Shown: piece after piece, positions 20,234-62,043 of the stretch
How the letters are laid out: the number at the start of each line of letters is the position of its first letter
Numbering within the stretch: the first letter of the stretch is position 1
IMG/VR virus record: IMGVR_UViG_2609459792_000007
Length of the DNA stretch: 64,000 nt
Reading direction: 5' to 3' (one strand)
Source: a virus
Lineage: Duplodnaviria > Heunggongvirae > Uroviricota > Caudoviricetes
The notes under the pieces: model-generated
What the model was told of the DNA's origin: nothing
The model's database searches: none
The model's input: the letters and a program-made list of their open reading frames with translations, nothing else
Program-made: the position numbers and the translations under genes

Positions 20234-20289
20234 TCTCTCCGCGCGTCGTTTTTTTACGCAAACAATGATAGGTAAGTACAAGATTATTT

Positions 20290-22615: not shown

Positions 22616-22902
22616 GCAATTTAACTTCTTGGGACTGGTGGTTGGTCACCTATTTCTTAGCGGCTGGAGTAGCATTCGCCTTTTACGTAGGTCAGTTAGT
22701 CGTAAAACTGTTGCTGATTAAATTTGCTAGTCATAAACGTATCGATGATGGTCTGTGGCGTCTTGGCACCTTGGTGGAAACTCGCTACGGGCAACTTAAG
22801 GAGAACGAAACCATTACTATCCAAGCGAAACGATTCACTGCCACCATCACAAGAACACCTAGTCGTAGAGTGGCCTTGATCAAAAAAGTCACAACCGAAT
22901 AA
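22612..22902 (+). CDS. small membrane protein
   Basis: 96 aa; N-terminal TM helix (WWLVTYFLAAGVAFAFYVG), then ..LGTLVETRYG.. Confidence 0.45.
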   Translation: MSNLTSWDWWLVTYFLAAGVAFAFYVGQLVVKLLLIKFASHKRIDDGLWRLGTLVETRYGQLKENETITIQAKRFTATITRTPSRRVALIKKVTTE

Positions 22903-23681
22903 AAATACAATGATAAGTATTTACTTACTTATCTTATATGTATAAGATGACTTTGTTTTCGTTGAGACGCGACTGTTTGAACTTAAATACAAGTGCAAAC
23001 GAAGAAGTCTATCTGGCAGTAGCCTAATAAGCCAAACACCAGCGAGGTCAGTTTCCAGCCTCGTTACCGAAATGGGACACACTGAGCGAGTGTGATTGCA
23101 GAACGCAGGAGGGAACATTCATGTTCCCTCCGATGAAGTAACAGAATGGGCGGTTGGTATATTTTCAACTCCATATGACTCCCGGATTCTTAGCCACTGA
23201 CCGCCCATTCTGTTACGTCATTTTGTTCAATTATGTCGTTTATACTGGGTTAAAAAGCGGCGACGTAGCCCGGCTGGTATGGTCAGCCAGCACACAACGT
23301 TGAGGCCATTACATTTTTATCAATTCTAAGGTTCTATTCACAGAGATACCGGCGAGCGTTGATATGTAACATGTTGGGCAAACATTCAATCGGAGTAGTG
23401 GCCTCAACGTTGTGAAAATAGGATAGTTGTGTAGGTTTAACCACTGTTGCCATTGGTACCTGTTTTCACAACAAATGATTCCATACATCACATTGTATAA
23501 ATTACAAAGTAGGTGCTGTCCTCAGAAACATCATCTACTTAAATAATTTGCCTTCTACTATTGAGCGAAGTCGAAAGCGTCTGGCACTAACGAAAAGTGC
23601 AAGTAGCGGTGCGTTTCCTGGCAGAAACTAACACCGCCGCGATTGGCACTGTTGAGTAATAAATACTGGCAGTGCTGAATT

Positions 23682-23756
23682 GATGGTGTAGCTCAGCGGT
23701 AGAGCAGTTGGCTGTTAACCAACTGGTCGGTGGTTCGAATCCACCCACCATCGCCA
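23682..23756 (+). tRNA. tRNA-Asn (GTT)
   Basis: Cloverleaf read by hand: acceptor GATGGTG/CACCATC, D-arm GCTC-AGCGGTA-GAGC, anticodon loop CTGTTAA, T-arm GGTGG-TTCGAAT-CCACC, CCA encoded. Confidence 0.85.
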
Positions 23757-23761
23757 ATTTA

Positions 23762-23848
23762 GGGGAGTTAGTCCGTAGAGGTAGCGGGGTAGACTGTAAA
23801 TCTACTGTCATGGAGACTCGGGTGGTTCGACTCCATCACTCCCCACCA
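23762..23848 (+). tRNA. tRNA-Tyr (GTA), long variable arm
   Basis: Acceptor GGGGAGT/ACTCCCC, anticodon stem-loop GTAGA-CTGTAAA-TCTAC, long variable arm, TTCGA T-loop, CCA encoded; D-arm pairing atypical. Confidence 0.7.
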
Positions 23849-23852
23849 AATT

Positions 23853-23928
23853 GCCGGTTTAGCTCAGTTGGTAGAGCGCCTGCCTTGTAAGCAGGATGTC
23901 AGCGGTTCGAGTCCGTTAACCGGCACCA
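23853..23928 (+). tRNA. tRNA-Thr (TGT)
   Basis: Acceptor GCCGGTT/AACCGGC, D-arm GCTC-AGTTGGTA-GAGC, anticodon loop CTTGTAA, T-loop TTCGAGT, CCA encoded. Confidence 0.85.
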
Positions 23929-24142
23929 ATACAACGATAAGATCATTACGGTTAATCGTCGTTCATGTGCACAATGACTGGTCGAAAGGTAGTGATCTTA
24001 CCGTTGTGGTGGATTCGCAGACTGATGCGATAGCTTTCTTGGATGTTAGGGAAATGCGGCCGCAAATCTTCCCTTTCGCGAGCGGTGATCGTCCGTAGTC
24101 CTAATTGGCTGCACCGTATGCCGGAGATTCAGTACCGGCCAC

Positions 24143-24229
24143 CACAACGGCCGGAGAGTAGGGAGCATGGTGCTCAAGCGGTCTTGAAAACCGTCCCATT
24201 GCGCAAGCGATGATGGTTCGATTCCATTA
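24143..24229 (+). tRNA. tRNA-Ser (TGA), class II
   Basis: Acceptor GGAGAGT/ACTCTCC, anticodon stem-loop GCGGT-CTTGAAA-ACCGT, long variable arm, T-loop TTCGATT, CCA encoded; D-arm atypical. Confidence 0.65.
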
Positions 24230-24396
24230 CTCTCCGCCAGACACAGCGTTGAGCGGTTTGGCCTTTTAATCAACTCGATTAAGACTCCGCTAACATAAAC
24301 CAGACCGCTCAACGCTGTGATAGACAATTACGGCAGACGTTCTTAACCATAGCTTGCTAACATCCTAGCAACACTTTTTTTCAGCGCAAAATTCAA

Positions 24397-24418
24397 AGGG
24401 GCTTCGGCCCCTTTTTTG
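24397..24418 (+). terminator. rho-independent terminator after the tRNA cluster
   Basis: AGGGGC-TTCG-GCCCCT followed by TTTTTT. Confidence 0.8.
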
Positions 24419-24460
24419 CAACTGAAAGAGTCAAGTCTACGAACTTTGTAGGGAGAAATA

Positions 24461-24811
24461 ATGACCAGCAAAGAGAACACACCACTAAAAGTCACCCCTG
24501 AACACATTGAACAACTCATTCAAAGTGAACATTATTTCACTGCATATGATGCCAGCCACGGGGATAACTTCATCTCTGTTTACAATTCAAAAACAGATAT
24601 CGACAAAGGTCATGAGTCGTTAAAACTCTTAACGTTCTGCGTTATGGTTCTCAAAAATGGATATACCGTAACGGGAAAATCTGCGTGCGTAAGACCAGAA
24701 ATCTTCAACTTTGATGTTGGTCGTGAGTACGCTCGAAAAGATGCTATCGATCAAATCTGGCCCCTGGAAGGCTATCTCCTGAAGCAAAAGTGGCATGAGG
24801 CAAAGCAATGA
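24461..24811 (+). CDS. hypothetical protein
   Basis: 116-aa ORF; no motif recognised with confidence. Confidence 0.5.
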   Translation: MTSKENTPLKVTPEHIEQLIQSEHYFTAYDASHGDNFISVYNSKTDIDKGHESLKLLTFCVMVLKNGYTVTGKSACVRPEIFNFDVGREYARKDAIDQIWPLEGYLLKQKWHEAKQ

Positions 24812-25053
24812 CGATCACTATCTACGGACGAGATAACTGCTCATACTGCAAACGTGCGGTCGAGCTGGCGAAGCAACTAAAGGGACATGGCTACGGTGAT
24901 TATGAGTACATAGACATCACCACTGCCGGTATCGACAAGAAAAAACTAAGTGAAATTGTTGGTAAACCGGTAGAGACTATCCCCCAAGTACTGATCGATG
25001 GTCAACCGATTGGCGGATACACAGAACTGGCTGCATACGTCAGCACCCTCTGA
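24808..25053 (+). CDS. glutaredoxin (Grx1/NrdC-like)
   Basis: 81 aa; CSYC active site; GKPVETIPQVLIDGQPIGGYTELAAYV closely parallels E. coli Grx1 (GKPVETVPQIFIDQQHIGGYTDFAAWV) as recalled. Confidence 0.85.
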   Translation: MTITIYGRDNCSYCKRAVELAKQLKGHGYGDYEYIDITTAGIDKKKLSEIVGKPVETIPQVLIDGQPIGGYTELAAYVSTL

Positions 25054-25057
25054 TTTT

Positions 25058-25083
25058 AACGGCTCACAGGAGCCGTTTTTATT
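25058..25083 (+). terminator. rho-independent terminator
   Basis: AACGGCTC-ACAG-GAGCCGTT followed by TTTATT. Confidence 0.7.
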
Positions 25084-25133
25084 ACCACCAAACTCACTCC
25101 CATTTCCCTTAAAATTCAAAAAACAACGTCAAA

Positions 25134-25164
25134 ATGATTCCATACCTACTATGTATGGAATCAT
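25134..25164. promoter_or_regulatory. perfect 12-bp inverted repeat upstream of the recombinase gene
   Basis: ATGATTCCATAC-CTACTAT-GTATGGAATCAT; half-site ATGATTCCATAC also at 22463 and 23478; 17-mer ATGTATGGAATCATTAG recurs at 31181-31197. Confidence 0.5.
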
Positions 25165-25263
25165 TAGTGAAAATGAGTTACTTTTACTCTTGATCCTATA
25201 AGAATCTATGCCTAATATACTGTTTACTTATACAGTGAATCGGCGTAACTCGGTGATTGTCAT

Positions 25264-26367
25264 ATGAAAAATAGCTTTGACAGAGCACGCGCTGCGGAGA
25301 ACACCTCAAAAGAGGCGATTGAGTATCTCGAAAGAGCATCTCAAATGCAGGCCGTTATGATCTCGCAGGTTAGCATTGATATGAGATTCTCGGACGCATT
25401 CATGTTATTCACTCGCTTATCTCTGCTGATAACCAGACGTCGGCCAGAGATCGCTGTTCATTGTATTTTGATACATGTTTTGCCGCACATTGCCGATGTA
25501 AAAGTAAGTGACATTAATAGGTTCATGGTGAACCAGCTGGTCAACCCACTAATACTGGATGGCAAAATTGTTATGGGCCGCCGCGTTTTCTCTCTGATGA
25601 AACAGTTCCTTAGCTGGTGCGCCTTCCAGGGGATGATAGACGTGTCACCGTTAAACGATATGTCACTAAACAAAGTTGCCGGTGGCGCAAAGCCCACACC
25701 TCGCGAGCGGAAGCTGACCGACGCAGAGGTATGGGTGTTCTGGAATATATGGGACTACTTCAATGTGTGCGCTGGTACAAAATGGGCGGCCAGGCTGTGT
25801 CTTGTATCAGCAAGACGACCTGACGAAGTACTGCGGGCTAAAAAAAGTGAGTTCAATCTTAAGCGTGGGGTTTGGAATCAAGGCAAGAGAAACAAGTCAG
25901 CACGTGAGCATTCGCTGCCTTTAAGCACATTAATGCGCACATGCATTGAAGAGTTGTTCGAATACGGTAAAGACAGCCAGTGGCTCGTGCCTTCGAATAA
26001 AAAAATCGGGAAAGACCTTCCTATGTCTAAAGTGGCAATAGCCCAGGCATTACGTCGTATTCTGGAACGACCAGAACTGATGGAGCTTGAGCCATTTACA
26101 CCCCGAGATTTGCGCCGTACTGCGCGTAGTTACTTCCCAGCATTAGGCATAAGCCAGGAGGTATCACGCAAAATCATGAACCACAGTCTTGAGGGGATAG
26201 ATCGGGTCTACGACCGGCACGATTATATGGACGAGATGCGAGACGCCTTAGAAAGTTTCTCGACGTACATCGCATCAATCGTAGAGCAACCGGATTTAGA
26301 CGAAATTGACCACAAATTCAAGGGAGATCGTCTATCAACAGAGCTTATTCGTGTAAATTTTTCATAG
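25264..26367 (+). CDS. tyrosine recombinase / integrase (P4-family catalytic domain, atypical N-terminus)
   Basis: 367 aa; C-terminal catalytic residues in RDLRRTARSYF and NHSLEGIDRVYDRHDY; N-terminal about 60 aa do not resemble the usual arm-binding domain. Confidence 0.75.
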   Translation: MKNSFDRARAAENTSKEAIEYLERASQMQAVMISQVSIDMRFSDAFMLFTRLSLLITRRRPEIAVHCILIHVLPHIADVKVSDINRFMVNQLVNPLILDGKIVMGRRVFSLMKQFLSWCAFQGMIDVSPLNDMSLNKVAGGAKPTPRERKLTDAEVWVFWNIWDYFNVCAGTKWAARLCLVSARRPDEVLRAKKSEFNLKRGVWNQGKRNKSAREHSLPLSTLMRTCIEELFEYGKDSQWLVPSNKKIGKDLPMSKVAIAQALRRILERPELMELEPFTPRDLRRTARSYFPALGISQEVSRKIMNHSLEGIDRVYDRHDYMDEMRDALESFSTYIASIVEQPDLDEIDHKFKGDRLSTELIRVNFS

Positions 26368-26748
26368 AGACTTTATGGCCTCAACAACCTTTTGTGATGC
26401 GCCTTTCTCTTTACCGAATCGCTCGTTATACGCAGCAAGAACCTGTTTTTCGTCCTCGTTAAGAGGAGCGGTGCCTTCTTTGTATAAAAATGCTGCGAGT
26501 TCAGGTTGGCGTTCTTCCAGCACCATCATCATAAGACGACTTGGTTCAATACCCAGCGCCAGCGCCAGCGGACGAACCTTATCGATAGGCAAAGGAATTT
26601 TGCCACTTTTAATTAAAGAAAGGTTGTTGGCATTTTTATAACCAATAAGTCTGGCTATTTGGGCCTGACTCATAGGTGAGGATTCAATCAGCCCTGCGAT
26701 AAAAGCAGCATAGCGACTTTCTATAAATTCAATCTTGTTGTCAGACAT
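26362..26748 (-). CDS. HTH (XRE/CI-like) transcriptional repressor
   Basis: 128 aa; helix-turn-helix QAQIARLIGYKNANNLSLIKSG; no S24 peptidase domain; divergent from the downstream + genes across an AT-rich intergenic region. Confidence 0.65.
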   Translation of the reverse strand: MSDNKIEFIESRYAAFIAGLIESSPMSQAQIARLIGYKNANNLSLIKSGKIPLPIDKVRPLALALGIEPSRLMMMVLEERQPELAAFLYKEGTAPLNEDEKQVLAAYNERFGKEKGASQKVVEAIKSL

Positions 26749-26999
26749 TGTTACAACCTTTGCGCGTTTAATTCTCTCTGGTAAGTGCTTACCGATATTA
26801 CATCAAAGGTTAGGGTTGTAAAGCTATTATCATTTTTTTCGGCAGGCACTTGTAAGACCGAGCAAAGGTCCATGCATGGAGAAAAACTAGCCCAAAATAG
26901 GTAAGAAAATTAACTTGCATCTGATATAGATGTATTCAGTATTGATACAAATTTTAGTAGTATTCCTTACCATAGTATAAGTTAGAATGGATTGATTGA

Positions 27000-27212
27000 A
27001 TGAAAACCACTATTTCCAGCCTAATCGCTCTTGAGATCGGACACGTACAGAAATTAGCTGATGAGTGTGTAGCTGACATCCTCACCGATCTACCGAATGA
27101 GCAGATTCAGGTTGGTGTGAATGACACAACTGGCTTTATATTCGAACTTAACAACAAACGCTTCACGCTTCTCAATACCGGCTCCGGGTCTTTAGCCGTC
27201 AGAATCTGTTAA
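27000..27212 (+). CDS. hypothetical protein
   Basis: 70-aa ORF divergent from the repressor gene; no motif recognised. Confidence 0.4.
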   Translation: MKTTISSLIALEIGHVQKLADECVADILTDLPNEQIQVGVNDTTGFIFELNNKRFTLLNTGSGSLAVRIC

Positions 27213-27310
27213 CCCCTCTTCTCCCTGCGCGAATGGCTTAGTTCCCTGTTCGCGCAGTGCTACATTAAACACACTAGTAAATAATTTGTTTTCATAACAA
27301 AGGATTAGCC

Positions 27311-29419
27311 ATGTCTAAAAAACGTTCCATCAAAGAGGTTCAGGACTTCCGTGACAGTGTAAAACGAGTAGTCGCTCTCCTTTCAGGTAAAAACATCCCT
27401 GTTGCAGAACGAGGGGACGACGCTTATGTACGCTATAACGATGATGGAGAGCCAATTCTCGTAAACATCCCATCAATCCCGGATAACGCAACACCGGCAT
27501 TGATGAATGCTGTGCGCGGATTTCTCGATCATGAGGTTGCTCACATTTTGTTTACCGATATTCGTGTGTCCAACAAAATGAGAGAAAAAGGACGCGTTCC
27601 TTCCTGGTCGCTATGGAATGCCTTAGAAGACGTGTTCATCGAGCGAAAAATGGGTCAGGTCTTTAACGGAACAAGACGTAATCTGATGGCAACTCAGCGC
27701 CTTATAATCGAAAAAGTCTTTAAACCAAAGGCTTCAGAGGCTATTGCTTATTGTGGCAAAGATCAGCGCGCGCTTTTTCTAAACTTCTTTCTCTGTCCGG
27801 TTGTAAGAGCCTGGGATGGCCAAGCACCGTTCGTAGATTTCATGGATGAATATTGGCCTGTCATTGAGAAACCAATTTCATTATTAAAAGAACATGGTAT
27901 CGATGTGGCCGTGCGTAACATGTCTTGCACCGAGGATTGTGTAAAGGTGGCTGCGACCATAGCTAAGATCCTCAAAGACACTGAAAGTGAAAGCAAAGGT
28001 AAGGAGTCAGCTCCGGGAAAAACTTCCGATCCTTCAGACGCTGACCAGACGGATGCCTCTGGAGAAAACAATGAAGACAACGAAGATCATGAGACACCCT
28101 CATCGTTAGATAATCACAAATCTATTAAATCAGAGTCACATAGTAAGCACAAACATGATAATAACGACAGTGATGATTCAGATAATCCTGAATCATCAGA
28201 AACAATATTCGATGATACAGAAAATGATAAAGCGGTATCAGATTCTGATGCTTCTGATAACGCGGCGTCAGAATCATTAACCGCTGACCACGAAAAAAGA
28301 AAAACGACAGAAGACGGCTCTTCAGACATTCCAACTCCGTCAAAAATGAGTCTGGAAGAGGCTTTAGAGGAGTTGGATAGCATGGAAGATGAAGTCGGAG
28401 GCATGACAGAAGATGCGCTATCCGAAACGATTAAAAGCGAGTTAACAGAAAGCTCGAAAAGCGAATACAGGCCATACAATCGCTCATACGACTTCATCGG
28501 CTCGATTGATCAGGCAGAAGCCCATATCAAACGGCTTATTAAAACATTCTCCGATATTGATTTAGGTGGATATCCAATCAGCCGTTATCGCATCGTTCCT
28601 GAAGGCAACCAACTCTTCGACAAATATATTGAAAAGCACCTTTCGTCAGGTGTTTCGTCGACGCTGGCAAAAGACCTGGAACGTGCAATAGCAAGCAGAA
28701 ACAGAGTTCAGTTTATACCTGGCCAGCGTCGGGGGCGCATTCATGGTTCAAGTATCTACAGATTAACAATGAATGATGATCGCGTGTTTCGTAAAAAAGA
28801 AGAATCTAAAGCCGTTAACGCCTGTGTTCAACAAGTGATTGATTTATCGGGTTCAATGAGTGGCGAAACGATAAAACTAGCTCTTGCAAGTGCATATACC
28901 ATCGCCGATGCACTTGATCGAATAAATGTTCCCAACATTATCACCGGCTTCACTACATTTGGCAGTCATATGGCAGCAGGAGAACTTAAGGCTATCAAAT
29001 ATGAGTTCTCTCGCTTTGAATCTTTAATGCTACCTATCATCAAAAATTGGAATGAAAAAGCAAATTCTCGCGAAGTTCGCTCACGTATGGGGTGCGTAGG
29101 CTACACATTCCCACTTCTTAATAACGTGGATGGTGAAAGCATAGCCAGCCTTGCATCGTTATTTTCCGGTCGCTTGGAGGACAGGAAGATCATGCTTGTT
29201 CTGAGCGATGGCGCGCCGTGGGCTGTTGGGAGAGGTTTTGACGCCCATTTGCGTTCGGTTACGAAGCAAATTGAAACGCAGACTGACATTGATTTGATGG
29301 CAATTGGCATCATGACTGATGCACCGGAGAGATTTTACGCAAATCATGCCCTGGTAACTAGTGTTGATAGTCTTGGTTCATCTGTAGTTACTGAACTATC
29401 TCGTATCATTTTGAAGTAA
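27311..29419 (+). CDS. CobT-like protein with C-terminal von Willebrand factor A domain
   Basis: 702 aa; long acidic Asp/Ser/Glu-rich linker; vWA MIDAS-like motif VIDLSGSMSG near the C-terminus. Confidence 0.65.
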   Translation: MSKKRSIKEVQDFRDSVKRVVALLSGKNIPVAERGDDAYVRYNDDGEPILVNIPSIPDNATPALMNAVRGFLDHEVAHILFTDIRVSNKMREKGRVPSWSLWNALEDVFIERKMGQVFNGTRRNLMATQRLIIEKVFKPKASEAIAYCGKDQRALFLNFFLCPVVRAWDGQAPFVDFMDEYWPVIEKPISLLKEHGIDVAVRNMSCTEDCVKVAATIAKILKDTESESKGKESAPGKTSDPSDADQTDASGENNEDNEDHETPSSLDNHKSIKSESHSKHKHDNNDSDDSDNPESSETIFDDTENDKAVSDSDASDNAASESLTADHEKRKTTEDGSSDIPTPSKMSLEEALEELDSMEDEVGGMTEDALSETIKSELTESSKSEYRPYNRSYDFIGSIDQAEAHIKRLIKTFSDIDLGGYPISRYRIVPEGNQLFDKYIEKHLSSGVSSTLAKDLERAIASRNRVQFIPGQRRGRIHGSSIYRLTMNDDRVFRKKEESKAVNACVQQVIDLSGSMSGETIKLALASAYTIADALDRINVPNIITGFTTFGSHMAAGELKAIKYEFSRFESLMLPIIKNWNEKANSREVRSRMGCVGYTFPLLNNVDGESIASLASLFSGRLEDRKIMLVLSDGAPWAVGRGFDAHLRSVTKQIETQTDIDLMAIGIMTDAPERFYANHALVTSVDSLGSSVVTELSRIILK

Positions 29420-29514
29420 TTAAAACAGCCTTAATGATAAGTAACTACTTACCATAGTTAATGGTATATTTATATAAGAACTTGAACGCTCATTAGAGAA
29501 CAAAGGAAAAGCGC

Positions 29515-30750
29515 ATGACTACTACTGCACTGCAAAATGATAAAAATCCTTCTGATTACCTTGTTTGCAAGTGGTGCGGCAAATCATTTCACTATTTTAA
29601 GTCCCATGTAGCCAATGGTAATTGCGAGGGCATTCCTGAGTCAGTAAAAGATGCCGATCCTGACACCGTACTGAAAATGTACACAACGCAGTTTCCAGAT
29701 GAACCAACGCTATCGAAAAAGGCACTTGATGCAATTCAAGCTAAACGTGCCGAGCAAAAAAGCGAAATGGCGAAATCTTCTGGCTTGACCAGTAGCCCAG
29801 GCTACACAGGCACAGTTGAGTACAAGACAGATCTGGTCGCAGCTCACGAACTGCTAAACGTAACGGTGGAAGAACTCGGAACAAAACGTGGGACGCCGCT
29901 CATGGTTAGCGTCAACGTCAATACGCCGTATCCAGAGTTCGTTCCAGAAGTGAAGAAGGGCTACGTATATGGCGACTTCGAACTTATCAAAGATATTTTC
30001 ATGATGCTTGAACTTGGCATACCTGGCTATTTGTGGGGTCATGCAGGAACAGGCAAATCGTCATTGCCTACACAGCTATGTGCTTTGCTCAATCGTCCGT
30101 TGATCCGTGCCCAACATACAGCATCAATGGAAGAGGCACATGTTACGGGGCAAATTCTGGCGCGTGATGGCTCTACGTATTTCGAGCCTGGCTTGCTTGC
30201 GCTCGCAATGAAGCATGGCTGGGTTTACCTCGCGGATGAATACGACTTTGCGTTTCCACAAATTCTTGGCGTGTATCAGCCAGTGCTGGAAGGTGAGGCG
30301 TTGGTCATCAAAGAGGCAACTCCAGAATGGCGTCGCATTACTCCGCATGAACGGTTTGCTTTCATTGGCACTGGCAACACAAACGGTTCTGGTGATGAAA
30401 CCGGCTTGTACCAGGGTACAAACATCCAGAACGCCGCGAACTTTTCACGTTTTGGCATCGTTTCGAATGTGAAATACATGAGCAAAGAGGCAGAGATCAA
30501 CATGTTGATAAATGCCGGTATCGTGGATGAATACGCAGAAAAGATGGTTAAGTTTGCCGGTATCGTTCGCGATGGATACGAAGAACACCTTATCAGTCAG
30601 CCAATTGGCCCTCGTGAACTTTTGTTGTCGGCCAAGATTGGAATGATGCGAGGCGACTTTGTGACAGGTATTGAGCGTTCTTTCATTAACAAACTCCCTT
30701 CAGCTTCTGCACAAGCGGCTCGTGAAGTTGTTCAAAAAATATTTGGTTAA
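29515..30750 (+). CDS. CobS/MoxR-like AAA+ ATPase
   Basis: 411 aa; Walker A GHAGTGKSS, Walker B VYLADEYD; N-terminal Cys/His cluster (CKWCGKSFHYFKSH..C); immediately downstream of the vWA partner. Confidence 0.7.
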   Translation: MTTTALQNDKNPSDYLVCKWCGKSFHYFKSHVANGNCEGIPESVKDADPDTVLKMYTTQFPDEPTLSKKALDAIQAKRAEQKSEMAKSSGLTSSPGYTGTVEYKTDLVAAHELLNVTVEELGTKRGTPLMVSVNVNTPYPEFVPEVKKGYVYGDFELIKDIFMMLELGIPGYLWGHAGTGKSSLPTQLCALLNRPLIRAQHTASMEEAHVTGQILARDGSTYFEPGLLALAMKHGWVYLADEYDFAFPQILGVYQPVLEGEALVIKEATPEWRRITPHERFAFIGTGNTNGSGDETGLYQGTNIQNAANFSRFGIVSNVKYMSKEAEINMLINAGIVDEYAEKMVKFAGIVRDGYEEHLISQPIGPRELLLSAKIGMMRGDFVTGIERSFINKLPSASAQAAREVVQKIFG

Positions 30751-30802
30751 TCGTGCGTAAAGGATGTTTCGGCTCTCTTATCGCTGCTTCTGAAACTGGT
30801 AA

Positions 30803-30829
30803 GGCTTGTCTGGTGTGTCCAGACAAGCC
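30803..30829. promoter_or_regulatory. perfect hairpin in the cobS-dnaE intergenic region
   Basis: GGCTTGTCTGG-TGTGT-CCAGACAAGCC (11-bp stem); no U-tract. Confidence 0.4.
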
Positions 30830-30929
30830 CGATTGTCACCAATCAGCAAAAGAAGTTGCGATTTCGATGCATGGGAAGTTCGTAGGCTTCCCCAATGACA
30901 AAATCAAAAAACCAGAAAGGTAAAAACAC

Positions 30930-33900
30930 ATGAAGGCACTGATGGTTCGAACTGACTTCTCACTTGGGGAGTCGGCTCTAAAAGCAGAAAACGCGGTGAA
31001 GATTGCCAGAGAAGCTGGCTACACCGCTGTAATTTCAGCAGATAGCATGAATATTGCGAGCGTTATTCCACTACAACGTGCCGCTGGTGACGACATGGCG
31101 GTTATTTGTGGTGTGAAACTAAACATTGTTGATGATCCCACATACGAGCACCGGGCTAAACTTGCTAAAGAATCTATGAGATGTATGGAATCATTAGAGC
31201 GGGGACGTAACTACTCGTTTACCGCTCTAATTAAAAATGAGCAAGGATATCGCGACATCTGCGAACTAATGACGGCGGCCAACACACGAGAACAGTTCTA
31301 CTTTGTACCGCGTCTCTCGCTCGAACAGTTGGTTTCTACATATGCCAAAGGCAACATCATCCTGCTTACTTCCGACATCGGTAGCGTGTTCCAACGCAAC
31401 GATTTTGCAAAAATCATAAGCACACTGATTACAGCGGGTGGAAAAGACAACTTCTATAGTGTGGTTTATCCGCACCCTACCCCATTCTACGACCAGATTA
31501 ACGTCCGGGCGATGAAAGTCGCCAGCGCATTGAAAATAGAGCCAGTGGCGTTCTATCCCGCTTATTACGAATCGATCGACGATGCAGACATTAAAGACAT
31601 TGCGCACATGGTTACGAACAACATAAAAATCGACCAGCCGCATCGTCTGCGTATCCCCCACCAGCGAGATAACGCCGTCAATGGTCGCCGCCATCTCCTT
31701 GAGGCGCTTAAAGCCTTCTCCGTTCGCATGGATGTGCCGGTAACAGCTGCAATGGCCTCAACAACGCAGGACTCCATTATCGAAGCCTGTACATGGCGCT
31801 GGCATGAATTGCCACCAGCACTGCCCAAGATGGCAGACGACGAGCCTGCAACGCTGATGAAACTGGCTGTTGCAGGGCTGCGCAAACGTCTTACCACAAA
31901 AGAGTTTGGCTACACACCACCGGCTTCTGAGAACAGGGTTTATGTTGAGCGACTTAAGTACGAAATGGACACGCTTACTCGCCTGGGATTTTGTGGTTAC
32001 TTCCTGATGGTACGCGATCTGATGAATCACAGCCGTGAAACTGGCATTCCTGTCGGGCCTGGTCGTGGTTCCTCTGCCGGTTCTCTGGTGGCGTGGTGCA
32101 TAGGCATAACCAACGTCGACCCAATCCGTCACGGTCTTCTGTTTGAGCGTTTCATCAACCCTGAGCGTCTCGACTTGCCGGATGCGGACTTGGACTTCAG
32201 CCAGGCACGTCGCCATGAGGTGATCGAGTATCTGAATGAACGCTACGGCGAAGATTACGTTGCAGGCATTCCGAACTTCACCTACCTGGGCGCAGCCTCT
32301 GCACTACGTGATACCGCTCGTATTTATGGTGTGGAGTCCGCAGATATGGCGGTATCAAAAGAACTGAAGAACGCTGAGGATGATAGCCTTCCATTGGAAG
32401 AACTGCGCGAACAACTGGCAAGTCTCGACAAATACGCAACAAAATATCCTGATGCATTCAATGCAGCCTGCAAGTTACAAAGCCTTATGCGTGGCTTTGG
32501 TAGACATGCGGCAGGGATGATCGTAGCAGGTGTTCCTCTGACAGAACGTACACCGGTTGAGCGCCGTGGTGACGCGCGTTGTATCGCATTTGACAAGCGT
32601 TACTGCGAGGCTATGGGCCTAATTAAGCTGGACGTGCTTGGCCTGGCAACTCTCGATTTGCTCGATAGTGCAAAACGCTACATAAAAGAGAACACAGGTG
32701 AAGATATCAATCTTGATGCCATTTCTCTTGAAGATCGCAAGGTGCTGGATGGTTTTGCTGCTGGGTACACTCAAGGTGTTTTCCAGCTTGAATCAGGCCC
32801 AATGCGCAAGCTGCTTAAAGATTTAGGTGGTGGAATTGAGCCAATGAGCTTTAAAACGGTCGTCGCTACAACTGCGCTCTTCCGGCCGGGGCCAATTCAA
32901 TCAGGCATGTTGGATGACTATGTTTCTGTCGCCAAAGGCTTTATGACGCCGGAATCATTACACCCCGTTCTTGATGAACTTACCGCGGAAACAAATGGCG
33001 TGATTCTCTATCAGGAACAGACGATGAACGCGACTCGATTGCTTGCCGGCTTCACAATGGCTGAAGCTGACGCTGTGCGTTCCGCAATCGGTAAGAAGAA
33101 CATGGAAAAAATGAAGAGCATGGGCGAGAAGTTCATCGTTCAGGCTCAAGCTGGCTGGATAGACGTTGAGCTGGAAGATGGCACTACACAGCGCATTCAC
33201 CGTGCGGAACATTTTAAATGCGAAGACGGAACTCTGAAAACTGTCGAAGAGGCACTTGAGCACGGCGCAAAACTACCTATAAACGCAGTACGCGTTACAG
33301 CGTCACATCCAGGGCTATCAGAGATGAAAGCGAAGGAGATCTGGACCGCATTCGAAAAGAATGGTGCCTACCAGTTCAACAAATCACACTCTGTTGCTTA
33401 CTCCTTAATCAGCTATCAATCTATGTGGTTGAAAACTCATTATCCCGCAGAGTTTTTCGCTGCTGCTCTCACTATTCTTGGCGAAGATAAACACCAGGGG
33501 CTGGTTAAAGATGCGCTGACCTATGGTATTCGCGTATTGCCACCAGACGTTAACGTGTCATCTAACCGAATTGAGATCCGCACGCTTGAAGATGGCAGCC
33601 AGGTGCTGTATGCGCCCTTCTCTGCTGTGAAGGGGTGTTCTGAGAATGGCTGCCAGGCCATCATGAGAGCGCGAGAAAAGGTTGGTGGCAAATTCGAGTC
33701 ACTTGCGCAATTCGAAGAAGCTGTCGAGAAACGTGCCTGTAATAGTCGAGTGCGCGAATCGCTGCAAAAAGTAGGGGCGTTTGCATCCATCGAGCCAGGT
33801 AGTCTGCCAGCAACTGATCCAGAGCGCCTCCGCGACCAGGCAGAATTGATGGGAAACCTTGTCATAGACGCAGTTAAAGCCTCACGTCCGTTTGAGATGA

Positions 33901-34448
33901 ACCCCAAACGATCGGCTGAAATTAACGCACTCATGACACGGATGGCGGCTGAAATGGGCTTAGGTGATGAACTAATCCGCCCCAGCATTGGTATTAAGCC
34001 GAAAATCATGATCATTCTGGACAATGCAAACGGCAATGATGCTCGAACCGGTTACTTCATGGAGAACGGATACGACGATTTTAAGGCCAAGCTGTTGACG
34101 GCTGGAGATTTGCGCATGGGCGATCTCTATGTCACAGGCGTTTGCAAAAAGGTGAAAGACAAAGAAAAGGACTACACCAAAGACGAGATCGGCCAGTTCA
34201 CCGACTTTATGCGTGAAGAGATCAATCTGGTACGTCCGACCTATGTGCTGACGTGTGGCAGTCGGGCAACGGCATTGTTTAACAACAAAAACAAGCCATC
34301 CGATTTAGTCGGTAGGAAGGAGTATCTTCCAGACCTTGACGTTACAGTCTTTTACGGGTTTAACCCCAACATTCTTTACTTCAGACCTGAAGAGGGAGAA
34401 CGACTAGAAGCGATATTAGCCGACGTAGCAGAAACTATTAAGTCGTGA
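30930..34448 (+). CDS. dnaE: DNA polymerase III alpha-like (DnaE-type, N-terminal PHP domain)
   Basis: 1172 aa; polymerase core segment GFCGYFLMVRDLMNHSRETGIPVGPGRGSSAGSLVAWCIGITNVDPI and downstream DnaE-like blocks. Confidence 0.8.
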   Translation: MKALMVRTDFSLGESALKAENAVKIAREAGYTAVISADSMNIASVIPLQRAAGDDMAVICGVKLNIVDDPTYEHRAKLAKESMRCMESLERGRNYSFTALIKNEQGYRDICELMTAANTREQFYFVPRLSLEQLVSTYAKGNIILLTSDIGSVFQRNDFAKIISTLITAGGKDNFYSVVYPHPTPFYDQINVRAMKVASALKIEPVAFYPAYYESIDDADIKDIAHMVTNNIKIDQPHRLRIPHQRDNAVNGRRHLLEALKAFSVRMDVPVTAAMASTTQDSIIEACTWRWHELPPALPKMADDEPATLMKLAVAGLRKRLTTKEFGYTPPASENRVYVERLKYEMDTLTRLGFCGYFLMVRDLMNHSRETGIPVGPGRGSSAGSLVAWCIGITNVDPIRHGLLFERFINPERLDLPDADLDFSQARRHEVIEYLNERYGEDYVAGIPNFTYLGAASALRDTARIYGVESADMAVSKELKNAEDDSLPLEELREQLASLDKYATKYPDAFNAACKLQSLMRGFGRHAAGMIVAGVPLTERTPVERRGDARCIAFDKRYCEAMGLIKLDVLGLATLDLLDSAKRYIKENTGEDINLDAISLEDRKVLDGFAAGYTQGVFQLESGPMRKLLKDLGGGIEPMSFKTVVATTALFRPGPIQSGMLDDYVSVAKGFMTPESLHPVLDELTAETNGVILYQEQTMNATRLLAGFTMAEADAVRSAIGKKNMEKMKSMGEKFIVQAQAGWIDVELEDGTTQRIHRAEHFKCEDGTLKTVEEALEHGAKLPINAVRVTASHPGLSEMKAKEIWTAFEKNGAYQFNKSHSVAYSLISYQSMWLKTHYPAEFFAAALTILGEDKHQGLVKDALTYGIRVLPPDVNVSSNRIEIRTLEDGSQVLYAPFSAVKGCSENGCQAIMRAREKVGGKFESLAQFEEAVEKRACNSRVRESLQKVGAFASIEPGSLPATDPERLRDQAELMGNLVIDAVKASRPFEMNPKRSAEINALMTRMAAEMGLGDELIRPSIGIKPKIMIILDNANGNDARTGYFMENGYDDFKAKLLTAGDLRMGDLYVTGVCKKVKDKEKDYTKDEIGQFTDFMREEINLVRPTYVLTCGSRATALFNNKNKPSDLVGRKEYLPDLDVTVFYGFNPNILYFRPEEGERLEAILADVAETIKS

Positions 34449-34456
34449 TCCAATAA

Positions 34457-34484
34457 ACATGGCCTCTATGGCCATGTTTTCTCT
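34457..34484 (+). terminator. rho-independent terminator
   Basis: ACATGGCC-TCTAT-GGCCATGT followed by TTTCTCTT. Confidence 0.65.
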
Positions 34485-34573
34485 TATCCCCTCATATCCC
34501 CTATCCTCGAACTCCTTGCCTTATCATCACAATGATATAATCAATATAAGATGATAAGTAAAAAGGAAAGCAC

Positions 34574-35005
34574 ATGATCACCGATATTTACGAGAAAATA
34601 ATGTCTGATCTCGAGTTTGACCGAGACAATCTGGAGGAAGTCTGGCGTAGACAACCCCGCCTTTTAATGGAGTATGGCTCAAAACTCGCTCATGCAGAAA
34701 GAAGTGTCGCAGAGGCAAAACTTAACCTTGAAGCTGTTGAAGCAAAGCTATACGACACAGAGCGTAAGAACTTGAGTATGAACGGCATTAAGTTCAACGA
34801 GTCTGTACTGGACGCTAAGGTTAAAACGAACCCACAGTATCTATCTAAACGGCAGAAGTTGGATGAAGCACGGCACATCGCAGACATATACAAACATGCT
34901 GTCGCCGCCTTCACGCATCGCCGAGACATGATCGTTCAGGCGTCGAAGATGGCCATCGTTGAATTAGAGCGATTAGGCTCTGAACGCTTTATTACTCCCC
35001 GTTGA
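34574..35005 (+). CDS. hypothetical protein, possibly UvsY-like recombination mediator
   Basis: 143 aa, helical; weak resemblance to T4 UvsY as recalled (shared KV.T..QY segment and similar spacing); sits beside gp32-like SSB and RecA-like genes. Confidence 0.35.
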   Translation: MITDIYEKIMSDLEFDRDNLEEVWRRQPRLLMEYGSKLAHAERSVAEAKLNLEAVEAKLYDTERKNLSMNGIKFNESVLDAKVKTNPQYLSKRQKLDEARHIADIYKHAVAAFTHRRDMIVQASKMAIVELERLGSERFITPR

Positions 35006-43582: not shown

Positions 43583-43914
43583 AGGCCATCCCATTTGCGC
43601 TGTTGTTCCTTTCTTCGATCGTTGTGGCCGACACCACTGTTTATCAGTGTGAAATGTCTGTAGCCGACGTTAAGAATGGCGCTCTTACCGACGTCATAAA
43701 AGCACCATATGGAGCGATGGTCGTAGACAGCGGCGACCAGTTCTATGTTGTGCGTGACGATCGAGTGTTGTCATCCCCATATCTCACAAATCGTAATGGC
43801 AAATTAACCGGCGTCGGAGAAGACCACTTCGTATACAACAAATACAAGGGCTTCTATGGCGTTCACGCTTCTCAGCAAAGCTACCTTTTCGATGACTGCA
43901 AGGAGGTTGGATAA
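43579..43914 (+). CDS. hypothetical secreted protein
   Basis: 111 aa; N-terminal signal-peptide-like MKAIPFALLFLSSIVVA. Confidence 0.45.
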   Translation: MKAIPFALLFLSSIVVADTTVYQCEMSVADVKNGALTDVIKAPYGAMVVDSGDQFYVVRDDRVLSSPYLTNRNGKLTGVGEDHFVYNKYKGFYGVHASQQSYLFDDCKEVG

Positions 43915-44126
43915 TGGCATTAACACTGGCAGGTCTGGAAATCGAGAAAACAAGCGGCTACTGGCGTGCTAAGGGTTTCAAGCAGCCTGGCATTCTTGAG
44001 CGTCTGGAACGTGAAGATGGGTATATCGTCCACCAGCGGCGTGAATGGCGTATGTACGATCCAGAAACAGGAAAACTGACTACAAAAGCCGGAACACTTT
44101 GGGGTCTGTTGAAGAAAATACACTAA
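43914..44126 (+). CDS. hypothetical protein
   Basis: 70-aa ORF; no motif recognised. Confidence 0.4.
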   Translation: MALTLAGLEIEKTSGYWRAKGFKQPGILERLEREDGYIVHQRREWRMYDPETGKLTTKAGTLWGLLKKIH

Positions 44127-44133
44127 TAGCACC

Positions 44134-44616
44134 AACCACTGCGGTGAGTAGTCTACTCACCGCATTCGTATCCAGCTCATTATCCACTGTAGTCAGTAAC
44201 AAAACCTTCCTACATATCTGCTAACCACTGTAGCGAGTAGACAGCCTTTCATTCGCATCAAACAACCACTATGGTGAGTATTGGAGTGAGATGTCCAGCG
44301 GGTATCCACTATGGTGAGTAAGCCTTTGCTGTTTTCAGTGGATATCCACTCGCCACAGTGGATACGCTCAAAGATGAGGGCGACAACAACCACTATAGAC
44401 AGTAAATTTTCCAAGATACCCAGTGACCACTAACCTCGCAGCCCTTGTTTCATCAGTGTTAGTGATCACTAACATTTAATTCAGTATTTGCATTCTACTG
44501 CCTACAGTGGTTATCAACAGATAACGATACTCACTATAGTGGATAGCGAATTACAGATATAAGTAAGGCTCACTACAGTGGATAGTGAGTCTTACTACTA
44601 ACTACAGTGGTTGGGC
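44134..44616. repeat. iteron array downstream of repA (incA-like)
   Basis: About 10 copies of a 9-bp core CCACTRTAG in both orientations, e.g. AACCACTGCGGTGAGTA, ATCCACTGTAGTCAGTA, CACTATAGTGGATAG, AACTACAGTGGTTGG. Confidence 0.8.
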
Positions 44617-45671
44617 TATTTGCGAGTCTTTGCCTTGCGCAACTCTTCGAGAAGCGCCAGTTCTTCTTTACTCAACATGACCATTTTGCCTTCTTTTTCG
44701 TCAGGCACAACGTCGATAATGTCATCTTGATTCTCATCTGGGAGGCTATATTCCGTCTCATCATTATCGATTTTTGTTGATATTTGTGCCTGGCGTAACT
44801 TTGGCCGCCTATAGTGGATGACGAAGTAGACCGAGTTTCCGCGCTTAACTTCCGTGTAATCGAGATATCCTATCTCTCGCAGCTGTTCCATAGCCTTTCT
44901 TACCGTCGCATTCTGAGTAATAGTGCGACTTGTCAGATTAAGTCTGGCGCGTAAACGGGCTAGTGATATTGGTGCCGGATCAGGCGGCAAACTTTCAATA
45001 AAAGTATAAAGCGCCTGAGCGGATTCTTTTCTTGAGAGTTCGTTTATAGCCCGGAGTTGCAGAAGAACCTTTTTGTCGAACTGGTAGAGTTCGAAAATCT
45101 TGGGATCTGCTTTCAGTTCGACCGTATCGTGCTTGACACTATATTTTGCCGTTTGCACAAGATGCGTTACGTAAAACTCATCAGAGCCTTTGCTACGGAA
45201 CGAGATGGTATTTGTGGCAATACGGCTTAGCGAACTGTCCAGGCGTTTGCGTAACTTCGCTGATGACCTGGCGGTCGGAATGCCACACAGCCTTACAAAC
45301 TCAACGAACGGCAACGTGACAGTATCGCCAACGACCTTGTGTTTGGCAAACGCGTGGATTATTCCCACCCACGTTTTAAAGTCGTTATCCATATCAAGCC
45401 GAAGGCCAGAGATCCTTATGTCTTCGTACCCTTCGGCTTTTGCCAGAGACAGCTGTTTGAGTTCAGCAGAGGCATCCATAGAGACCATTTGCCCCTTTCT
45501 TCCTCTGGATGTCGATTTCAGCGTCGGAACGAAGAGGCCCAGACGCATCAAAGCAACAGGCTGAACAGTGTTATTAGTGTTAGGAACCAACGTAACAACT
45601 TCGCCTGTCTTTTTATCTGTTTCTGAAAATGCTTCAACGATCGCTATGTTTTTATTGCCGTTTTCGCTCAT
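44616..45671 (-). CDS. repA: plasmid replication initiator RepA (P1 RepA-like)
   Basis: 351 aa; [49 protein letters not shown] and [12 protein letters not shown] parallel P1 RepA as recalled; flanked on both sides by iterons. Confidence 0.85.
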
Positions 45672-45715
45672 TCCAAATGTCTCTTGTTATTCGACGGCTT
45701 TGGTGGCCTTTGCTG

Positions 45716-46330
45716 ATTACAGTGGATAGTAGCACTCATCACAGCGGTTATCCTACCGTCTATAGTGGTTTTTCTCCTCTCTATAGTGGTTGCTTTGCTC
45801 CCTATAGTGGATTGTTCGCTCTCTATAGTGGATATCGATCATGTCTGAAGGCAGATGGCACAACGGTTTGAGGTGGGCGGGGATCTTATTGGGTCTTTAT
45901 GGGTCTCTTTGGTTCTCTTTGTGATCTGAATTACTGGATCGGGCCTGTGGATAAAAATCAGAGAATTTCAAGAACAGGTAACTCTACTCTTCTGTGGATA
46001 TTTAAGGACATAAGAATCATGACTAAGAGTAGAGTTTAAAATATATCTATGTATATCAGTATGTTAATGAAGAATTAAGTCATTAAGTTATCCATAAAAG
46101 ACAATGTGCTCTACTCTCTACAGTGGATATATACAGCTCTCCAGAGTGGTTGTTTTACTCTTCATAGCGGTTATTCAGCTCTCTACAGAGGTTTCTTTGC
46201 TCTCCATAGTGGATGGCAACACCCTTTCAGACCAGTAACCGCAACGGCTAGAGGCGATCGGGGATCTCTTTGGATCTTCTATTTGATCTTACTTGGGATC
46301 TCTTATTTGGATCTATCCAGTGGATAACTG
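45716..46330. other. iteron-type replication origin upstream of repA (iterons, DnaA boxes, GATC cluster, AT-rich tract)
   Basis: About 11 iterons (CTCTATAGTGGTT-type) at roughly 20-bp spacing in two groups (45716-45836, 46119-46215); DnaA box TGTGGATAA at 45946-45954 and near-consensus at 45994-46002 and 46319-46327; six GATC within 46257-46313; AT-rich 46020-46100. Confidence 0.8.
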
Positions 46331-46414
46331 GGATAAGTAAAACAGGCAAATGCAGATTAAGGTATGCCTAATGAGTTATCGTAGCATCGGCCAATAACTA
46401 CTGAAAAAACGATT

Positions 46415-61449: not shown

Positions 61450-62043
61450 ATGATTGCAGCCGAAAAAATCAAACAGCGAAAGCGCGACAACTCTCTTCGT
61501 GACCTCTGGAGAACACCTGATTGGCTGTTTTCTGCCATTCAACGTTATCTTGGAGTGACATTTGATGTTGACGTTGCCTGCAACAAGGACAATGCAAAGC
61601 TGCCTAATTTCATAGGCGTTGAGCGTGATGCTTTGAAATCTGAATGGGGACAGCCAGGTACAATTGCCTTCCTCAATCCACCCTACTCCAAAATCTCCCC
61701 CTGGATTGATGCGGCTATACGTGAGCAGGCTCGCGGAGTTACAACAGTGATGCTAATTCCTCAATCCCTAGATACAAAGTGGTATGAGCGTGCAACAGAG
61801 TGTGCGAATGAGACGATTATTCTGTCTGGTGGCCGCGTAGCGTTTGTCGAGCCTGACGTCAATCTGGGTCAGGTAGAAGTAAACATCAACCCAGGTGGCA
61901 GTATGCTCGTTGTTTTTCGAGGATTCTGTCAGGACGCTGGGCACTCTATAAGCAAGATCCCTTTGGACGTCATGAAAAGTCTGGGAGGGTATGATCCTGC
62001 GAATGTGATCAGGAAAAAAAGACCATCAAAGAAGGCTGCTTAG
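61450..62043 (+). CDS. dam: DNA N6-adenine methyltransferase (phage Dam-type)
   Basis: 197 aa; catalytic motif FLNPPYS; size and motif fit the small phage N6-adenine methyltransferase family; target specificity not determinable. Confidence 0.7.
   Translation: MIAAEKIKQRKRDNSLRDLWRTPDWLFSAIQRYLGVTFDVDVACNKDNAKLPNFIGVERDALKSEWGQPGTIAFLNPPYSKISPWIDAAIREQARGVTTVMLIPQSLDTKWYERATECANETIILSGGRVAFVEPDVNLGQVEVNINPGGSMLVVFRGFCQDAGHSISKIPLDVMKSLGGYDPANVIRKKRPSKKAA

Follow-up and report, generated by a model that had tools for sequence, protein, structure and literature searches.

With high confidence, we identify the locus around repA in the 64-kb window (the whole 64,000-nt stretch of viral DNA that was analysed) as the replicon by which an SSU5-like phage-plasmid of the Cyrano/pLF82 type persists as a plasmid prophage; it belongs to the iteron-controlled theta replicons of the P1 RepA/RepFIB family. 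This confidence covers the identity of the replicon and its general mechanism, and the split of roles within the origin region is judged separately. The element itself is already known and the replicon is not new as a discovery. It is ordinary apart from the tandem doubling of its origin module: the region upstream of repA consists of two tandem paralogous P1-oriR-like modules, in each of which five or six iterons are joined to a cluster of GATC repeats and a DnaA box. The overall arrangement is the one that the initial annotation, made from the letters of the window, had described as a P1-type replicon, with repA flanked by an origin-side and an incA-like array, and the layout of P1 indeed matches. 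All the elements which that annotation listed were confirmed at its coordinates or close to them. The anatomy of the locus, its homology and its conservation are direct observations.

Identity, spread and initiator of the replicon

Across all 2,301 bp of the region, the window is 99.8% identical to Escherichia phage Cyrano (= pLF82), in which repA is annotated, and approximately 60 E. coli and E. albertii plasmids show the same 99.8% identity over the region. SSU5 is 83% identical over the region, and pHCM2 and pMT1 are approximately 81% identical over the 743-bp upstream region. The neighbours of the locus, a cra-like ORF to one side and genes for ASCH and SbcCD to the other, are also the same as in records of Cyrano and the SSU5 group. 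Outside the replicon region there are places at which the window departs from Cyrano.

The locus is carried by roughly 335 plasmids from five genera, and 129 of 5,426 complete E. coli genomes (approximately 2%) carry the replicon, always on a plasmid and never on a chromosome. The matching plasmids examined have the MOB-suite type IncFIB, which is also the sole replicon type that MOB-suite gives for the examined phage-plasmid records; the SSU5 (IncFIB) replication gene has already been included in typing tools (10.1101/2025.09.12.675607). Maintenance as a plasmid, first proposed to be at low copy number, is supported by this plasmid-only occurrence and by the measured copy number of Cyrano, 5.5 per cell (PMC9928086).

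The gene repA (44616-45671, minus strand) is predicted from its sequence to encode a Rep_3-family (WH1-WH2) iteron-binding replication initiator of 351 aa. WH1 is recognised by Pfam Rep3_N (PF01051) at 1.3e-10, with 42.2 bits against a cut-off of 22.4. The match of WH2 to Rep3_C (PF21205) is barely over threshold (1.3e-4; 22.6 bits, with the cut-off at 21.1), and the assignment is supported because P1 RepA aligns over its full length. By BLASTP, RepA shares 130 of 267 positions (49%, E 5e-93) with residues 21-283 of the 286 residues of P1 RepA, an alignment that upholds the resemblance between the two proteins noted at the outset. Identity rises to 60% with the E. coli RepFIB RepA (E 5e-143) and to 69% with the Rep of a Pantoea megaplasmid. 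RepA also matches PHROG 775 at 6.8e-146, no family was matched in a scan against NCBIfam, and a sequence search against solved structures returned nothing at E ≤ 0.01. The identity of repA to its relatives is 94/96/66% by codon position, which points to purifying selection.

The putative repA promoter has a weak P1-like -10 and a poor -35, and was not recovered by a consensus promoter scan. Its candidate -10, TAGGAT (45750..45755, minus strand), is placed purely by positional homology, lies between the second and third iterons from repA and does not vary among five relatives. The annotated -10 of P1 PrepA has this hexamer too, and the distance to the ATG is 79 nt here and 73 nt in P1. The only strong minus-strand promoter in the consensus scan, at 46067..46040, was rejected as the repA promoter: it lies in non-conserved spacer, and its hexamers are not retained in SSU5 or pHCM2.

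Iteron arrays and a duplicated origin module

A matrix trained on the 11 upstream iterons only was scanned over the 64 kb and found 25 iteron sites, all within 44133-46215 and each scoring at least 15.4 bits, compared with 13.7 bits for the best match elsewhere in the 64 kb. The downstream sites were recovered independently by this upstream-trained matrix. The iteron consensus is CTCTCTAYAGTGGWT. All 11 upstream iterons have one orientation and a spacing of 21-23 bp. The count of about 11 upstream iterons in the initial annotation stands, but they are not one array and are instead divided between two tandem origin modules.

The proximal (repA-side, incC-like) array of origin module 1 holds six direct iterons on the plus strand (45713..45834; starts at 45713, 45735, 45756, 45777, 45798 and 45819) with a spacing of 21-22 bp, about two helical turns. 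It is 88-89% identical to its relatives and is likely to be the repA operator. The distal array of origin module 2 holds five direct iterons, also on the plus strand (46114..46215; starts at 46114, 46137, 46158, 46179 and 46200), spaced by 21-23 bp and 85-88% identical to relatives.

Downstream of repA lies an incA-like array of 12 iterons (16-nt cores, 44133..44613, 15.4-21.8 bits), six in each orientation, where about 10 in mixed orientation had been counted before. Those of minus polarity start at 44133, 44181, 44222, 44263, 44303 and 44387, and those of plus polarity at 44329, 44349, 44498, 44530, 44569 and 44598, the last of which overlaps the stop codon of repA. With SSU5, pHCM2 and pMT1 the array shares 79-80% identity, compared with 64-68% for neutral spacer, and the number of iterons varies from 12 here to 13 in pHCM2, 14 in pMT1 and 15 in SSU5. 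A further iteron-like site, CCGCCTATAGTGGATG (44805..44820, plus strand, 16.4 bits), lies within the 3' part of repA and is found at the same place in SSU5, pHCM2 and pMT1. It codes for residues conserved with the C-terminus of P1 RepA, and coding constraint alone could explain its conservation.

Each upstream array is followed by T-rich repeats that carry Dam (GATC) sites. The distal cluster (46256..46313, approximately 58 bp) has six sites at 46256, 46263, 46273, 46285, 46297 and 46310 with a spacing of 7-13 bp. It corresponds to the six upstream GATC sites in 57 bp of the initial annotation and is the densest 60-bp stretch among the 273 GATC sites of the window (Poisson expectation approximately 0.02 per 64 kb). 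By analogy with P1, it is presumed to be the methylation-controlled DNA-opening region. Over its heptamers and DnaA boxes, the distal module shares 70% identity with the matching stretch of P1 oriR, and the cluster is approximately 79% conserved in Klebsiella phage-plasmids despite their different iterons. At the outer end of the distal module there are two tandem DnaA-box-like sites on the minus strand (46319..46336), AGTGGATAA at 46319-46327 with one mismatch and CTGGGATAA at 46328-46336 with two; SSU5, pHCM2 and pMT1 have the perfect box TGTGAATAA at this position. A stretch of 21 nt at this end, TTGGATCTATCCAGTGGATAA, is identical to P1 oriR at the annotated DnaA-binding site.

The proximal repeat cluster and its DnaA box (45882..45954) consist of six T-rich repeats with a spacing of 10-14 bp, of which three keep GATC (45882, 45923 and 45937) and the others read GGTC, GGTC and GTTC, followed directly by the perfect DnaA box TGTGGATAA at 45946-45954, where one had been reported. 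All five relatives carry the altered repeats unchanged, and repeats and box together form the best-conserved non-coding piece of the locus, with 93-95% identity to SSU5, pHCM2, pMT1 and Enterobacter. The window contains two perfect DnaA boxes against 2.8 expected, a count not above chance, so it is the placement of the box, and its retention in relatives, that give it weight. The inter-module spacer (45955..46113), with 72% A+T in this window, includes two sites that each differ from a DnaA box by one mismatch, TGTGGATAT at 45993-46001 and TTATCCATA at 46088-46096. It is 64-67% identical to relatives, near the neutral rate, except for short conserved islands at the box-like sites.

The two modules repeat with a period of approximately 380 bp and share 72.6% identity across 219 columns; their alignment scores 129, compared with 6.5 +/- 3.8 for shuffled sequences. 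Both are retained in SSU5, pHCM2, pMT1, Enterobacter and another E. coli plasmid, and two modules are also found in the Pantoea megaplasmid, whereas P1, classical RepFIB and the Klebsiella and Shigella relatives have one. The E. coli plasmid pTB212 was rejected as an example lacking the proximal iterons, given that its record is merely cut there by the coordinate origin. Between Pantoea and the SSU5 group, module similarity is approximately 70% in every pairing, which fits a shared or an independent duplication alike.

Both modules are conserved far above neutral sequence. Functional pieces of the locus are 79-95% identical to relatives, compared with 64-68% for spacer, leader and repA third-codon positions, in a comparison that amounts to approximately one deep split (the lineage of the window versus the SSU5/pHCM2/pMT1 group, whose members are closely related) and is therefore statistically shallow. 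The GC skew does not switch at the locus, a result that carries no information here since almost all genes run in the same direction.

Proposed mechanism, alternatives and significance

We infer the steps of binding, opening, methylation and control from P1 and RepFIB. RepA monomers would bind the direct, 21-bp-spaced iterons upstream of repA, host DnaA would occupy the outer-end boxes, and the T-rich GATC repeats that separate these from the iterons would melt for helicase loading. Full Dam methylation of the GATC repeats would be needed, and hemimethylated repeats would be sequestered by SeqA after firing, both as in P1 oriR, which is reportedly dependent on and controlled by Dam methylation. 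RepA bound to the repA-proximal iterons would repress its own weak promoter, and the downstream two-orientation array would lower the copy number through RepA titration and handcuffing with the origin iterons; this incA-like array would also be the main incompatibility determinant.

For the two modules, we tentatively prefer, with somewhat less than even confidence, a division in which the proximal module would serve as repA promoter and operator and the distal module as the main methylation-controlled origin. The distal module could also be an extra RepA-binding control site. Possible, without being probable, is the same replicon with these roles reversed or shared: either the proximal module is the origin and the distal module a cis-acting site of negative control or handcuffing, or both are origins that differ in Dam/SeqA sensitivity. 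Such a reversal would fit the conservation of the proximal cluster and its perfect DnaA box, the most conserved non-coding stretch at 93-95%, which makes the proximal module poorly compatible with a mere relic and means that it could be the real origin, and it would fit the position of the origin next to repA in every single-module relative. Extra iterons in iteron plasmids generally reduce the copy number. They have this effect in FIB plasmids (PMC11983097). However, it is the distal module that keeps all six Dam sites, compared with three of six left in the proximal one, as well as the P1-identical DnaA-box end, that has box-like sites on both flanks as in P1 oriR, and whose type of GATC and DnaA segment is retained in the single-module Klebsiella and Shigella relatives. 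We consider it rather unlikely that the modules are two functional tandem origins with different Dam/SeqA dependence, or an origin with a built-in cis control copy. On this reading, purifying selection acts on the two modules alike, which have drifted apart in their Dam-site content (six distal, three proximal).

Two further readings are more distant. The window codes for a DnaB-like helicase, a primase, a ligase and a Pol III alpha subunit, and given this helicase, primase and alpha subunit RepA is probably not the only replication mode. That the RepA/iteron locus is vestigial or accessory, with the element kept mainly by another system such as its own helicase, primase and polymerase, is nevertheless very improbable, considering the purifying selection on repA (94/96/66% by codon position), the conservation of iterons, GATC repeats and boxes well beyond neutral, and IncFIB as the sole MOB-suite type of the examined phage-plasmid records for a locus found on roughly 335 plasmids in five genera. 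We give even less credence, indeed hardly any, to the repeat arrays being partition (centromere) sites or transcriptional operators with no role in replication. Plasmid centromeres, too, typically show iterated short repeats around the gene of a DNA-binding protein, and no binding site was identified for the partner protein of the ParA in the window. Yet these arrays flank the gene of a Rep_3 initiator with homology to P1 RepA, next to the repeats come a GATC cluster and DnaA boxes that share sequence identity with P1 oriR, and the par genes (13858-14885) are 30 kb distant.

The initial annotation had drawn in two further loci. The proposed parA locus at 13858-14885 does contain a ParA-like ATPase, at 13858-14526, which matches Pfam MipZ, AAA_31 and CbiA and PHROG 164 ('ParA-like partition protein'). 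It is a small (222 aa) ATPase of the ParA/MinD type but not P1-type, and no P1-type ParA was found in the window by tblastn with the N-terminal 210 aa of P1 ParA. The Dam-type methyltransferase at 61450-62043 was correctly recognised and matches PF05869 'Dam' at 2.5e-38. That this phage Dam might free origin methylation from the host is speculation; as far as is known, the enterobacterial hosts named here encode their own Dam.

As an iteron-controlled plasmid replicon, the reading we hold with high confidence, the locus maintains SSU5-like phage-plasmids such as pLF82/Cyrano of adherent-invasive E. coli and pHCM2 of S. Typhi, and pMT1 of Y. pestis is linked to the group via the shared replicon. 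The map of iterons, Dam sites and DnaA boxes can be used for curing cassettes and incompatibility probes as well as for mini-replicons and the reading of copy-number mutants. The doubled module offers a clean natural test case in which iteron number and origin methylation can be set against copy number. If true, either of these functional two-module arrangements would extend iteron-plasmid control in a way not yet described, common to the SSU5, pHCM2, pMT1 and pLF82 replicons and the Pantoea megaplasmids, and might relate to the approximately 5 copies per cell of Cyrano. The searchable literature, with the 1998 pMT1 sequence papers and a 2026 RepA/copy-number preprint outside its scope, gave no account of a double origin, and a search for literature on pMT1 iterons found nothing relevant.

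Comparison with known systems

Within the SSU5 group (Cyrano = pLF82, SSU5, S. Typhi pHCM2 and Y. pestis pMT1), gene order and both modules are the same and there is no substantive difference, with only the number of downstream iterons varying from 12 to 15. P1 has the same succession of five direct iterons at 21-bp spacing, GATC repeats and DnaA boxes at the outer end, and the spacing of its incC iterons (21, 21, 21 and 22 bp) resembles the 21-22 bp of the proximal array. The likeness extends to the 21-nt identity at the DnaA-box end, the candidate -10 hexamer TAGGAT at a similar distance from the ATG, and the downstream iteron over the repA stop codon; in both incA arrays the sites near repA point the same way as the origin sites, and those farther away the opposite way. 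The iterons themselves differ, with a centre of TAGTGG here and GCACAC in P1. The P1 iteron GATGTGTGCTGGAGGGAAA is absent, 8 of 15 core positions being common to CTCTCTAYAGTGGWT and the reverse complement of the P1 iteron. Because of this unlike core, an incompatibility specificity other than that of P1 (IncY) is expected. P1 further differs in having one origin module instead of two, a RepA without the 58-aa C-terminal tail found here, and a par operon that adjoins incA, whereas the ParA here is of the small type and 30 kb off.

Judged by RepA identity, the nearest characterised relative is not P1 (49%) but RepFIB (P307, F and pO157 type; 60%, C-terminal tail included). Its layout is also alike, with origin iterons upstream that are accompanied by five GATC repeats and a DnaA box, and a downstream control array (PMC11983097), and in the RepFIB model the upstream iterons are the origin and the downstream iterons serve control and displacement (PMC11983097). 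The iterons have the CTAYAG part in common but differ in the 3' half (YTTAT in RepFIB versus TGGWT here), and RepFIB has a single origin module and is found on conjugative F-type plasmids, not on a phage-plasmid. The doubled origin has its counterpart in large Pantoea agglomerans plasmids (for example pASB05p2, 207 kb), whose Rep is 69% identical and whose iteron core is the same, with two tandem modules upstream of rep, each comprising five iterons together with a GATC cluster and a DnaA box. These are megaplasmids and not phage-plasmids of the approximately 100-kb SSU5 type, and in contrast to the replicon described here they keep most GATC sites in both modules (four and five).

Identity of the replicon and its initiator

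Over the 2.3-kb region carrying repA, identity is 99.8% to Escherichia phage Cyrano and to approximately 60 plasmids (100–126 kb) from E. coli and E. albertii, and 83% to Salmonella phage SSU5; the 743-bp upstream region is approximately 81% identical to pHCM2 (S. Typhi) and pMT1 (Y. pestis). The replicon region occurs in 129 of the 5,426 complete E. coli genomes in RefSeq, plasmid-borne in every case, and the matching plasmids examined are typed IncFIB by MOB-suite. In the Crohn's-associated strain LF82, Cyrano is plasmid pLF82; it makes virions and is present at 5.5 copies per cell (PMC9928086), and the SSU5 (IncFIB) replication gene is already in typing databases (10.1101/2025.09.12.675607). 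The initial annotation is confirmed and its P1-type reading supported; the replicon is already known and widely typed.

The product of repA (44616–45671, minus strand) is 351 aa long and contains both winged-helix domains typical of Rep_3 initiators (Rep3_N, 1.3e-10; Rep3_C, 1.3e-4), and its homologue in Cyrano is annotated RepA. The proposed likeness to P1 RepA holds on alignment, given that BLASTP against the protein of the annotated P1 record returned 130/267 identities (49%, E 5e-93) over P1 residues 21–283 of 286. RepA of the classical RepFIB replicon (E. coli F-type plasmids) is 60% identical, including a C-terminal tail that P1 RepA lacks; judged by sequence, the closest characterised relative of the replicon is RepFIB, not P1. 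PHROG 775 and several RefSeq phage records, P1 RepA included (P1, P7 and SSU5 records), label RepA homologues 'replication helicase', which is a spreading annotation error because the proteins so named are Rep_3 initiators, not helicases.

Iterons and tandem origin modules

A position matrix trained solely on the 11 upstream repeats (consensus CTCTCTAYAGTGGWT) finds 25 sites of ≥15.4 bits in the 64-kb window, all within 44133–46215, and scores no higher than 13.7 in the rest of the 64 kb. The approximately 11 iterons reported upstream of repA are present as six proximal (45713–45834) and five distal sites (46114–46215, farther from repA), all of one polarity and 21–23 bp apart. This corresponds to approximately two helical turns and matches the spacing annotated in P1 incC. 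The sites do not form the single array first described but belong to two modules: the segments 45713–45975 (proximal) and 46114–46345 (distal) are 72.6% identical over 219 columns, with an alignment score of 129 against 6.5 ± 3.8 for shuffled sequence. The region upstream of repA is a tandem duplication of an origin module. Each module comprises iterons, a short G+C-rich spacer, six T-rich repeats at 7–14 bp and a DnaA box, and three of the six proximal repeats carry GGTC, GGTC and GTTC in place of GATC.

Both modules and the three altered repeats are near-invariant in SSU5, pHCM2, pMT1 and one Enterobacter plasmid, and a less closely related E. coli plasmid has both modules too. Within the SSU5 group, module identities are 85–97% (proximal–proximal), 80–94% (distal–distal) and 68–76% (proximal–distal); since like copies are closer than proximal is to distal, the duplication is older than the group. 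Conservation was compared with relatives across essentially one deep split, which limits its statistical depth, and identities are 88–89% for the proximal iterons, 93–95% for the proximal repeats and DnaA box, 85–88% for the distal iterons and 79–80% for both the distal repeats and boxes and the downstream array. Both origin modules look constrained because their identities exceed those of the inter-module spacer (64–67%), the leader of the next gene (66–68%) and repA third-codon positions (66%). The tandem origin module is the sole feature for which we found no description in the literature searched.

The window holds 273 GATC sites, and the reported cluster of six upstream of repA (46256–46313) is the densest 60-bp window of the 64 kb, with approximately 0.02 such clusters expected per window (Poisson). 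P1 oriR aligns with this stretch at 70% identity in the same orientation, and 21 nt at its end (TTGGATCTATCCAGTGGATAA) are identical to the annotated DnaA-binding site of P1. The perfect DnaA box TGTGGATAA is indeed present at 45946–45954, but the count of perfect boxes in the window is not above chance (2 versus 2.8 expected); its weight therefore comes from its position and from the consensus box that relatives keep there, not from rarity.

Downstream of repA, where approximately 10 mixed-orientation iterons had been claimed, there are 12 in both orientations (44133–44613). The four nearest to repA have origin polarity, the five farthest are inverted and the three between are mixed, a pattern equal to that of P1 incA (three sites in origin polarity, then inverted ones). 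The iteron at 44598 and the repA stop codon overlap, an arrangement shared with iteron 9 of P1, and one more site (44805) lies inside repA. The number of downstream sites is 12 here, 13 in pHCM2, 14 in pMT1 and 15 in SSU5. The inverted half (44133–44402; matching parts of relatives L004, L005 and L009) gains or loses units of approximately 40 bp between relatives, which suggests unequal recombination among iterons; array size may possibly go with differences in copy number.

Partition, methyltransferase and neighbouring genes

The proposed parA locus does contain a small ParA/MinD-type ATPase (222 aa, 13858–14526), but it is not a P1-type ParA. The translationally coupled 119-aa ORF (14526–14885) has no Pfam match, falls in a PHROG of unknown function and is labelled 'RelE/ParE putative toxin' in Cyrano; its position beside parA suggests a ParA partner, a centromere-binding protein, rather than a toxin. 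The surroundings (12900–15800) are not collinear with Cyrano (L016), with parA at 13858 here versus 13290 in Cyrano-aligned coordinates. A 255-aa minus-strand ORF (14938–15705), the N terminus of which resembles a GIY-YIG nuclease motif by eye (YVYCLYD...PFYIGKGK), lies where Cyrano has other genes.

The methyltransferase at 61450–62043 belongs to the Dam family as proposed (PF05869, 2.5e-38), with putative GATC specificity and a hypothetical role at the origin; as far as is known, the enterobacterial hosts listed encode their own Dam. The Cyrano annotation (CYRAN_32–49; window 16000–35000) includes a helicase, a primase, a ligase, a Pol III alpha subunit and three tRNAs, together with UvsY, a gp32-like SSB and RecA-like recombination proteins. 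These presumably make up a lytic replication apparatus distinct from the RepA replicon. Directly past the downstream array, a 70-aa ORF (43914–44126; no Pfam hit; PHROG 804, unknown function) is named 'P1 Cra protein' in the Cyrano annotation and 'Cre-associated protein' in that of SSU5, and is kept beside the replicon in SSU5, pMT1 and Klebsiella relatives.

Module roles and comparison with known replicons

By homology with P1 and RepFIB, RepA would most likely bind the origin iterons and DnaA the outer boxes, and the T-rich GATC repeats would then open. Firing would need Dam methylation, which is established for P1 oriR, and hemimethylation would permit sequestration. RepA would repress its own promoter within the proximal iterons, and the downstream array would curb copy number through titration and handcuffing and be the main incompatibility determinant. 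For FIB replicons, recent work supports such a division, in which upstream iterons serve as origin and downstream iterons as control sites (PMC11983097).

Of the two modules, the distal one appears to be the fuller P1-type origin: it has six Dam sites, its box end is identical to that of P1, and a box-like site, TTATCCATA (46088–46096), lies on its inner flank. The proximal module likely carries the repA promoter: a candidate −10 (TAGGAT, 45755–45750, minus strand), assigned by positional homology, is the same as the annotated −10 of P1 PrepA (73 nt from the ATG in P1 versus 79 nt here) and is invariant in relatives, with a poor −35. We tentatively place the methylation-controlled origin in the distal module and take the proximal module to be operator and auxiliary site. 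The proximal module also has the only perfect DnaA box of the two and is the better conserved of the pair, and reversed roles, or two working origins, are a less likely alternative.

A single origin module is found in P1, in classical RepFIB replicons (E. coli, Salmonella and Klebsiella) and in Klebsiella and Shigella SSU5-like phage-plasmids. The Klebsiella elements have a distal-type GATC and DnaA segment (approximately 79% identical) beside quite different iterons. Because this origin segment is kept while Rep is only 53% identical and the iterons differ, it looks as if a rep-plus-iteron cassette was swapped beside a conserved origin core in the Klebsiella and Shigella phage-plasmids. The stretch 46245–46406, spanning the distal GATC/DnaA segment and the next-gene leader, is approximately 70–79% identical in these elements (records L007, 2501–2663, and L008, 2501–2682). 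Parts of the upstream region match 88 Pantoea records, and the module similarity matrix fits either one duplication event or two for Pantoea and the SSU5 group. The 207-kb Pantoea agglomerans plasmid pASB05p2 (L012, 1963–2600), the Rep of which is the closest outside the SSU5 group (69% identical), likewise carries a pair of modules, which share the iteron core seen here and each retain four or five GATC sites.
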